32,000 bases of DNA. Origin: an uncultured archaeon. GTDB lineage: Archaea > Asgardarchaeota > Jordiarchaeia > Jordiarchaeales > Jordiarchaeaceae. Location of the stretch: assembly GCA_964510585.1 (NCBI GenBank), contig CAZECW010000126.1, positions 2,734-34,733 on the forward strand, in the 5' to 3' direction. This document shows, in pieces, positions 16,879 through 25,739 of the stretch. Under the pieces are notes generated by a model. The model was not told the origin of the DNA, searched no databases, and saw only the letters and a program-made list of their open reading frames with translations. A program made the translations under genes and the position numbers. The stretch's first letter is position 1. The number at the start of each line of letters is the position of its first letter.

Positions 16879-17475
16879 GTGGAGCTTATGAACGAAAAAA
16901 ATGACTTAGAGGAGGAAAATGAAACAGAAGAGGCGGAAGAAGTAGTAGTAGAGGAAAAGGTGACTGCCCGCCTTAAAGAAGATGCCGTGATAGTCGGGGC
17001 AGAGGATGCTCAGAAGATTTATGAAAAAGGTTTCTATGGAGAAATTCAAGAGGATGGAACCCTCAAACTATCCCCCGTAGAATCACTACTCCTCGTGGAA
17101 AGAAACAGATTAGAAGTACTAAATGATAATAATGAAGTCCTAAATTTTCAGGCTCTTACAAAAATTTTTATGAAATATAATCCCAATCTCTGGTTAAAGT
17201 ATTTAGTCTACAGAGATTTAAGATCTAGAGGGTATGTTGTTAGGTCTGGGTATGGAGGGAATATAGATTTTAGGCTATACCCTAGGGGAGCGAAACTTGG
17301 AACTGACACTTCAAAAAGCCTCATCTACATTGTGAGTGAGGGTGCCCCAATTGGTTTGGAGGAGTTAGACAGAGTCACAAGGTTAGCGGTTTCTACAAGA
17401 AAGAGGTTAACTATGGCTGTGGTGAATCGGCAAGGGGAAGTCACATATTATCAAGTGTCTCAAGTATCGATTTGA
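16879..17475 (+). CDS. endA: tRNA splicing endonuclease subunit, probably the non-catalytic structural (beta) type
   Basis: LSPVESLLL, VYRDLRSRGYVV, DFRLY, RLAVSTRKRL. The catalytic Tyr and His positions appear replaced. Confidence 0.85.
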   Translation: MELMNEKNDLEEENETEEAEEVVVEEKVTARLKEDAVIVGAEDAQKIYEKGFYGEIQEDGTLKLSPVESLLLVERNRLEVLNDNNEVLNFQALTKIFMKYNPNLWLKYLVYRDLRSRGYVVRSGYGGNIDFRLYPRGAKLGTDTSKSLIYIVSEGAPIGLEELDRVTRLAVSTRKRLTMAVVNRQGEVTYYQVSQVSI

Positions 17476-21112: not shown

Positions 21113-21210
21113 AATATAAATAACTTCACCTGGCTAATTTGGGAAACACCTATAGAAGGTGGACCGTGCGGATTTTCTCCTAAAACTGTAGAACTAGAAG
21201 AATAAAGGGG

Positions 21211-21377
21211 TGGTAGCGGGATGTGGATTTGAACCACAGATCTCAGGGTTATGAGCCGACCGCCCTTGCGGTATTCTCCTTAAGGTCTGCGGGATCTCCT
21301 GAGTGGGCTTCCTCTTCTCTCGAAGAGTTCATCTACCTTGGACTTGGACTCTCGATTGAGAATCCATCTATCCCGCT
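21211..21377 (-). tRNA. Initiator tRNA-Met(CAT) with three introns: 10/11 (21338-21367, 30 nt), 15/16 (21303-21332, 30 nt), 29/30 (21258-21286, 29 nt)
   Basis: Spliced product AGCGGGATAGGGTAGTCAGGAGATCCCGCAGGGCTCATAACCCTGAGATCTGTGGTTCAAATCCACATCCCGCTACCA (78 nt). It has the A1:U72 pair and three G-C pairs in the anticodon stem (initiator marks). BHB helices GGAT/GTCC, GGGT/GCCC, CCGC/GCGG. Confidence 0.9.
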
Positions 21378-21421
21378 AACAAGCGCACTCTTCCCGCTAC
21401 GTTTTAGGTCAAGGAATCTTA

Positions 21422-21429: not shown

Positions 21430-21549
21430 GCTTTATTTAAATCTATCGTTACTTTTTGTATTCTGAAAAAAACTCTTTTGTCTTTCCTCCAGCATCAATT
21501 TTTCAATGAAGCCAAGCTATTTGAAGTTAGAGGAGGTAAAAAGGAGTAT

Positions 21550-25527: not shown

Positions 25528-25578
25528 GTTGTGAAAAAAACTTGTTTTTGCCGTCGTCCAAATTCTCCCAGGATAGGT

Positions 25579-25739
25579 GCCGTCGTAACTATTCACAAAG
25601 AATAGCGACAAGCTTAGCCCGGGAGAGCGTCGGATGCTGCCAGAATCCCTGACAGAAGACGAAACTGAAGATCCGATTGTCGCTGGATGCTGCCAGAATC
25701 ACTGACAGAAGGCGACTTCAAATCCGGCCGACGGCACCA
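25579..25739 (+). tRNA. tRNA-Phe(GAA) with three introns: 9/10 (25588-25611, 24 nt), 30/31 (25634-25663, 30 nt), 53/54 (25687-25716, 30 nt)
   Basis: Spliced product GCCGTCGTAGCTTAGCCCGGGAGAGCGTCGGACTGAAGATCCGATTGTCGCTGGTTCAAATCCGGCCGACGGCACCA. BHB helices GTCG/CGAC, CGTC/GACG, CGCT/GGCG, all with 3-nt bulges. Confidence 0.92.

Follow-up and report, generated by a model that had tools for sequence, protein, structure and literature searches.

In the split and permuted tRNA genes of Nanoarchaeum, Caldivirga, Thermofilum and Cyanidioschyzon, the BHB is built by pairing between leader and trailer sequences, which also keep the pieces of the tRNA together (PMC4033280, PMC3218864, PMC3978253). By analogy, these flanking helices are the closest functional relatives of an element that we describe here, a putative decoy of the acceptor stem in the 5′ leader of an archaeal initiator tRNA gene (iMet). 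In both, sequence beyond the mature tRNA would form part of the splice signal and would join RNA pieces until ligation. The iMet gene differs in that it is colinear and makes one transcript, and in the proposed model its leader is not cut by the endonuclease. The decoy would also mimic a strand of the mature tRNA, whereas the flanks of split and permuted genes pair with another flanking sequence.

The iMet introns themselves are typical of the non-canonical BHB class. Genes for tRNAs with non-canonical and with multiple BHB introns are described from Thermoproteales, Freyarchaeia and Atabeyarchaeia (PMC11291895; bioRxiv 10.64898/2026.10.13.758758; PMC4090602). A text search of the 2026 preprint among these, which deals with Asgard tRNA introns, returned neither "leader" nor "decoy", and no published description of a leader helper element was found in the BHB-intron papers and reviews searched. 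The iMet introns share with the published ones a 4-bp helix with two 3-nt bulges, a precursor that must leave the cloverleaf, and the lineage in which they occur. What sets this locus apart is a conserved copy of an acceptor strand outside the gene.

A comparable logic is found in rRNA precursors, where leader or spacer segments form placeholder helices with segments of the mature rRNA and are exchanged later. There, as proposed here, a transient helix made by a flank delays the mature helix until an earlier processing step is done. The RNA and the enzymes are different and no intron is involved, and the likeness is one of logic and not of family. That a precursor has to abandon the cloverleaf fold when an archaeal tRNA intron lies at an unusual position is an observation of long standing. 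To our knowledge, there has been no explanation so far of how a precursor copes when the splice signal needs the acceptor strand itself.

An initiator tRNA gene with three introns

The window is the whole 32-kb stretch of DNA that was analysed. It lies on contig C126 of a draft genome (G000) of 3.78 Mb with 41.7% G+C that is 96%-complete and whose relatives are filed as Candidatus Freyarchaeota or Jordarchaeia (Asgard archaea). The exons of iMet, which is on the minus strand, were mapped by the BHB rule and by comparison with the intron-free initiator tRNA genes of a sister family. Exon 1 (21377-21368) covers positions 1-10, consisting of the true 5′ acceptor strand AGCGGGA followed by U8, A9 and G10. 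The 30-nt intron 1 (21367-21338), at 10/11, separates it from exon 2 (21337-21333), which is GGTAG, positions 11-15. Then follow the 30-nt intron 2 (21332-21303) at 15/16, exon 3 (21302-21287) with positions 16-29, the 29-nt intron 3 (21286-21258) at 29/30, and exon 4 (21257-21211) with positions 30-76, including an encoded CCA. The 3′ acceptor strand, TCCCGCT, is at 21221-21215. Removal of the introns restores a normal cloverleaf of 78 nt that ARAGORN identifies as tRNA-Met(CAT). The spliced product has the marks of an initiator, namely the CAU anticodon, A1:U72 and G29-G31:C39-C41, and it is close to the intron-free iMet of the sister family. Intron 3 is confined to the close relatives of the window's genome and is missing in three more distant orthologues.

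The earlier note had claimed that intron 1 needs G5-G6-A7-U8, and these four bases indeed pair with GUCC at its BHB. The resulting 4-bp central helix, GGAU:GUCC, is flanked by 3-nt bulges (AG|A and AA|G) and encloses a 9-bp inner hairpin. The helix is kept in six orthologues, with a G:C pair changed to G:U in two, and the hairpin shows compensatory changes at three pairs across orthologues (RNAalifold, six orthologues). Since the central helix occupies G5-U8, it rules out a closed acceptor stem. Intron 2 takes G10-U13 for its own central helix, across the junction of exons 1 and 2, so that this helix can form only once intron 1 is gone; after in silico removal of intron 1, P(BHB2) is 0.61.

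Both ARAGORN and Rfam, run on the window and on the whole genome, missed the unspliced iMet gene. They returned only 7-9 tRNAs and also missed the genes for tRNA-Phe and tRNA-Thr(CGU), and are therefore useless as a tRNA catalogue here. Regular-expression scans for the T-arm and CCA gave about 11 tRNAs. A split or permuted arrangement of iMet was considered and rejected on the grounds that the exons are colinear behind one conserved TATA box and that there is no BHB at the boundary between the leader and +1. A contig from a sediment metatranscriptome covers the unspliced precursor with all three introns (21186-21384, with 5 differences), DNA carry-over being a possible source. This contig stops 8 nt short of the decoy, and the ends of assembled contigs carry no information about starts. 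No spliced joints were seen in the assembled contigs of public RNA runs.

The leader copy and its surroundings

The sequence TAGCGGGA is present on the minus strand at 21399-21392 and again at 21378-21371, 21 nt apart at the upstream end of iMet, exactly as first claimed. Elsewhere in the window it matches once, in reverse complement at 21214-21221, a segment made up of the 3′ acceptor strand and A73. Shuffled sequences gave a mean of 0.53 matches per window, so that the expectation for another copy in the 60 nt upstream is roughly 4e-4; the leader copy is beyond chance. The full decoy, GTAGCGGGA (21392..21400, minus strand), copies T-1 to A7 and has one extra G. With this preceding G, it could make 9 bp with UCCCGCU-A73-C74, one pair more than the true strand could in its own context. 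Between the decoy and the gene is a spacer, AGAGTGCGCTTGT plus T-1 (21378..21391, minus strand), that is mostly conserved and has a 1-nt insertion in two lineages. In the predicted fold, the leader bases T-2 and T-1 help to build the outer helix of the intron-1 BHB with exon 2.

Two further ideas about the spacer were dropped. A helix in which GAGUG and GCUU pair with the 3′ end of intron 2 and the start of exon 3 shows no compensatory changes, and 3/9 of its pairs are broken in at least one lineage, with four breaks in all spread over two lineages. The likeness of the spacers to strands of the intron hairpins (GAAGAG, GGATAG) is not conserved.

The promoter had to be moved. The TATA box put forward in the earlier note, at 21429-21422, is weak, and the conserved box is TTTAAATA (21434..21441, minus strand), about 12 nt away. 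It has an A-rich, BRE-like stretch upstream and is conserved as TTTAAAT[A/T] in 6/6 aligned orthologues. Going by the usual archaeal distance from TATA to start, transcription of iMet should begin near 21410, about 10 nt upstream of the copy, and not at the copy as the note had it. Conserved TATA boxes are found 22-34 nt upstream of the iMet decoy and of those in tRNA-Phe and tRNA-Thr described below, and the predicted starts of the Phe and Thr precursors coincide with the decoy or precede it by a few bases. In a scan for TATA-like 8-mers upstream of 40 tRNAs, the noise of this AT-rich genome would swamp any signal of longer leaders in the decoy-bearing tRNAs.

Conservation of the putative decoy

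GTAGCGGGA is invariant in 7/7 iMet orthologues from 4-5 lineages, some of which are only about 75% identical. This answers the question of whether orthologues with the same intron might lack the copy: it is kept in all seven. Five genomes of the same genus have the iMet gene, and two of these are about 75% identical over the locus. A metagenome scan with a pattern requiring exon 1, intron 1 and exon 2, and leaving the copy optional, turned up one further true iMet orthologue, which has the copy; the other four matches were due to chance. Among the orthologues, the bases between the TATA box and the copy show many substitutions and indels. When the leaders of iMet, Phe and Thr are pooled, 0/29 decoy columns vary, versus 48/85 (56%) of the columns from TATA to decoy (Fisher 6e-9, a figure to be taken only as a guide since neither columns nor lineages are independent). 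In the sister family, the genes for iMet and tRNA-Thr(CGU) are without the intron and without the copy. Because every orthologue comes from one genus, the co-occurrence of intron and copy counts as one evolutionary event per tRNA. Because the pairs of the iMet decoy helix are all invariant, there is no covariation within iMet.

Putative decoys of tRNA-Phe and tRNA-Thr(CGU)

The same design had been noticed at tRNA-Phe, and we find it there as described. The decoy TGCCGTCGT (25549..25557, plus strand) has its second copy at 25578-25586. The gene itself (25579-25739, plus strand) has introns at 25588-25611 (9/10), 25634-25663 (30/31) and 25687-25716 (53/54), and the spliced product is tRNA-Phe(GAA). 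The central helix of the intron at 9/10 is G4-G7:CGAC. An 8-nt core of the decoy is invariant in five genomes, among which the length of the spacer differs by 5 nt. As a separate observation on this gene, the two downstream introns (25634-25663 and 25687-25716, plus strand) are identical at 27/30 positions, which suggests that an intron was copied inside this gene not long ago. The orthologue in a complete Freyarchaeia genome of the same genus (G005) has an additional fourth intron, in the T-loop.

The third decoy belongs to tRNA-Thr(CGU), on another contig, where the leader reads UGGAGCCUUCGG-UGA before GCCUCGGU, followed by an intron at 8/9. Pairing of this segment with CCGGGGC-U-CCA is possible if one base bulges out. 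Six genomes share the segment unchanged, although the leader sequence further upstream is scrambled. The decoys of iMet, Phe and Thr are three different sequences, each matching its own tRNA. The complementarity goes further than that of a plain copy: iMet adds G:C74, and Thr adds UGGA opposite UCCA together with the bulged U. This excess complementarity in iMet and Thr suggests that what is selected is the ability to pair with the 3′ end, and not likeness to the 5′ strand.

Association with introns near the acceptor stem

The association of decoys with intron position was examined in G005, using its 38 published tRNAs (PMC11291895, Supplementary Data 4) plus iMet and Phe. With tRNA-Sec left out on account of a published 5′ end that appears misplaced, 39 tRNAs were usable. 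Each was scored by the RNAduplex energy of its 60-nt leader against the 3′ acceptor strand plus NCCA. The top scores are those of Thr(CGU), with its first intron at 8/9 (−18.3 kcal/mol), iMet, at 10/11 (−17.6 kcal/mol), and Phe, at 9/10 (−14.9 kcal/mol). The other 36 tRNAs, whose first intron is at 15/16 or later or which have none listed, score −8.9 kcal/mol or weaker. Strong pairing of the leader with the 3′ strand is therefore found exactly in those tRNAs with a first intron at or before 10/11 (3/3 vs 0/36). The tRNAs with introns at 15/16, where the central helix is off the acceptor strand, have no such pairing. Among the 21 mapped tRNAs of the window's genome, the energy ranking is the same, and in that genome the association stands at 3/3 versus one of the remainder.

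The published table for G005 does not contain iMet and Phe, which are at about 1729270-1729446 and 1547650-1547880 of CP147778 (loci L006 and L055); presumably neither gene had been annotated before. The 5′ end published for tRNA-Sec of the same genome (approximately 810389-810536, locus L051) seems to be about 26 nt too far downstream. Its "leader" has GGCGGACTG, which makes 9 bp with the 3′ end, as expected for the 9-bp acceptor stem of tRNA-Sec, and the placement of this segment implies an unannotated intervening sequence.

The published table for Atabeyarchaeia has no intron before 13/14, and no decoy was seen in the His (13/14) and Leu (14/15) genes that were read. This is consistent with the decoy hypothesis and adds no positive case to it. 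Also in Atabeyarchaeia, the 3′ acceptor strand of tRNA-Ser(GGA) of Atabeyarchaeia-2 (G031, 397196-397313, locus L070) is itself interrupted by an intron, at 68/69, whose inner helix, UCCAC/GUGGA, repeats the inner acceptor pairs. This gene is a mirror-image case and a candidate for a placeholder of the 5′ strand.

When the window's genome was scanned for this precise arrangement, with a 7-mer repeated within 45 nt and then its reverse complement ahead of NCCA, iMet, Phe and tRNA-Tyr came up. Other matches, on C121/C196, C177 and C113, looked coding-like by eye and were taken as chance. At tRNA-Tyr(GUA) (G000:C4, minus strand, about 43159-43130, locus L075), CCCGCAGTAACT is followed by TTA and then by the gene. 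This 15-nt tandem duplication of the 5′ end, with its 12-nt leader copy, already differs at one base. Only the window's genome and its closest relative (G001) have it, four other members of the genus (G002-G005) do not, and the tRNA has no acceptor-proximal intron. The duplication appears young and could supply raw material for decoys. It shows that duplications of this kind arise by themselves here, and it suggests that the duplication may precede the intron. Since Tyr has a copy without an acceptor-proximal intron, a copy alone is no proof of function. At the same time, that a duplication lacking an acceptor-invading intron is unconserved strengthens the contrast with the three conserved decoys.

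Predicted folding of the precursors

The folding figures that follow are ViennaRNA models of each precursor from its predicted start to the CCA. With the leader present, the decoy of iMet, Phe and Thr is predicted to pair with the 3′ strand with a probability of 0.98-1.0 (ensemble values of 0.98 for iMet and 0.997 for Phe), P(BHB1) is 0.92-1.0, and the probability of the true acceptor stem is about 0. Without the leader, the prediction flips: the true acceptor stem forms with a probability of 0.95-0.99 and P(BHB1) is at most 0.013. This leader-dependent flip persists at 25 to 70 °C. Both the helix of decoy and 3′ strand and the BHB1 helix are in the consensus that RNAalifold gives for six orthologues.

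The same dependence appears in the predicted free energy of the splice-competent fold minus that of the acceptor-closed fold. For iMet, Phe and Thr, respectively, the difference is −8.1, −10.6 and −7.0 kcal/mol for the wild type, +0.2, −5.6 and −3.6 kcal/mol with the decoy shuffled, and +4.9, +2.6 and +4.6 kcal/mol with no leader. Of 60 whole-leader shuffles per tRNA, none reached the wild-type P(BHB1) in iMet or Phe, and five did so in Thr. In Phe the specificity is lower, as many shuffled leaders open the acceptor stem as well (median P(BHB1) 0.75).

The models do not release the decoy. With all introns removed in silico, it is still paired and the probability of the true acceptor stem is at most 0.008; the decoy-bound fold is favoured over the true acceptor by 3.6 (iMet), 5.6 (Phe) and 11.3 (Thr) kcal/mol. 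The exchange of acceptor strands must therefore rely on tertiary folding, on proteins or on a cut in the leader. The models also bear on what happens between cleavage and ligation, when the 5′ exon consists of the leader and only 8-10 nt of the tRNA. The energy predicted for its association with the 3′ fragment is −9.4 (iMet), −11.3 (Phe) and −7.8 (Thr) kcal/mol without the leader and −12.5, −19.8 and −15.4 kcal/mol with it. The leader thus strengthens the predicted association of the cleavage products by 3-8 kcal/mol, which makes a role as a tether possible. Such a tether of the tiny 5′ exon may be an added or an alternative role of the element and, in these models, fits the data equally well.

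Alternative explanations

The central proposal of the earlier note was that the leader copy pairs with UCCCGCU and so frees the true 5′ strand for the splice structure. The conservation of the copy, its association with the introns, its absence from the sister family and the flip of the predicted ensemble all speak for this. Against it stand the decoy that stays bound after splicing in the models and the copy in Tyr that has no intron. Another reading is that the gene has been misread, with the upstream copy as the real 5′ end and the 21-nt spacer and second copy removed as a fourth intron or in some other way. The repeat would make such a deletion neutral in sequence, and the register spliced after nt 4 of the copy gives 3/4 central pairs. 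That register is also the best there is. The earlier statement that the spacer is not an intron stands, since no pair of splice sites gives a 4/4 central helix; all 8 registers of iMet and 9 of Phe give 0-3/4, because the strands of a repeat are identical and not complementary. In Thr the copy is inexact, and its use would give an acceptor stem with mismatches. The bases just upstream of the downstream copy, moreover, take part in the outer helix of the BHB. We regard this reading as very improbable. That the copy is a functionless relic, left by a tandem duplication of the 5′ end or by the event that inserted the intron, is easier to entertain, since the duplication at Tyr in G000 and G001 shows that events of this sort take place here. 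A relic would have to be reconciled with iMet, Phe and Thr decoys that are invariant throughout the genus next to leader sequence varying in 56% of its columns, with Thr and iMet decoys that pair with discriminator and CCA bases unmatched by a plain copy, and with the association with introns at 8/9 to 10/11 in G005 (3/3 vs 0/36). It seems to us rather unlikely.

In a further reading, the leader is a processing checkpoint. Here, the leader would mainly sequester the 3′ end, and in Thr and Phe strands of the T- or D-arm as well, until the acceptor-proximal intron is removed; it would block RNase P, CCA repair and aminoacylation, and the freeing of the 5′ strand would be a side effect. The modelled decoy that stays bound even after splicing is what this reading expects, and the predicted pairing reaches A73/C74 in iMet, the whole NCCA end and a T-stem strand in Thr, and the D-arm in Phe. 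The leader bases next to +1 also sit in the outer helix of the BHB, so that early cleavage by RNase P would weaken the splice signal. What this reading does not account for is the restriction of the element to tRNAs with a BHB that overlaps the acceptor strand, when 36 further intron-rich tRNAs are without it. The structure it calls for is identical to that of the decoy model, and sequence analysis cannot separate the two. We think it unlikely as the main function.

Proposed mechanism and its implications

The reading that we prefer, and consider probable, is that the iMet leader carries a cis-acting decoy, or placeholder, of the acceptor stem that is kept because it makes an acceptor-invading intron tolerable. 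As we picture it, the element probably originated in a short tandem duplication of the 5′ end of the gene. Transcription would start near 21410, and the leader segment GUAGCGGGA would pair with the 3′ acceptor strand plus A73 and C74. The true 5′ strand would be left free, and its G5-U8 could pair with GUCC at the 3′ end of intron 1. These four pairs, the intron hairpin and leader bases −2 and −1 would together make the BHB signal for the splicing endonuclease. Between cleavage and ligation, the pairing of the decoy would tether the short 5′ exon, consisting of the leader plus 10 nt, and intron 2 would fold only once exon 1 had been ligated to exon 2. With splicing complete, the decoy would give way to the true strand and RNase P would remove the leader, a step that goes beyond what the models explain.

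Machinery for such a pathway is present. There are two EndA paralogues with PF01974 matches over the cut-off, one at G000:C157 and one in the window at 17188-17448 (plus strand). The latter is about 4 kb from iMet, inside a tRNA-rich stretch. The presence of two paralogues would suit a two-subunit splicing endonuclease, a kind known to accept relaxed BHB motifs. Archaeal RNase P RNA occurs in G005 (1698618-1699006, next to tRNA-Val(TAC)), in G009 and in G031. It had no match in the 96%-complete draft of the window's genome, which is probably an assembly gap and not an absence.

Whether the mechanism extends beyond the three genes is, in our judgement, about an even question. Acceptor-strand decoys would then be a general class of cis-acting elements of archaeal pre-tRNAs, born from short tandem duplications of the 5′ end. 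By holding on to the 3′ end and keeping the tiny 5′ exon tethered, they would let introns become established within or beside the acceptor stem. Processing would run in the order of intron 1, later introns and RNase P. The decoy interpretation is partly supported, with strong backing from genome comparison and modelling, and the leader decoy would be a new accessory element of a known splicing system. A conserved leader decoy would be a simple and directly testable answer to the problem of a splice signal that needs the acceptor strand. It would also add to tRNA genes a functional part that annotation tools ignore, and it helps to explain how iMet and Phe came to be missed in the published Freyarchaeia catalogue. 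As for how some Asgard tRNA genes could evolve their extreme intron load, a neutral duplication may precede the intron and render tolerable a position that would otherwise be harmful.
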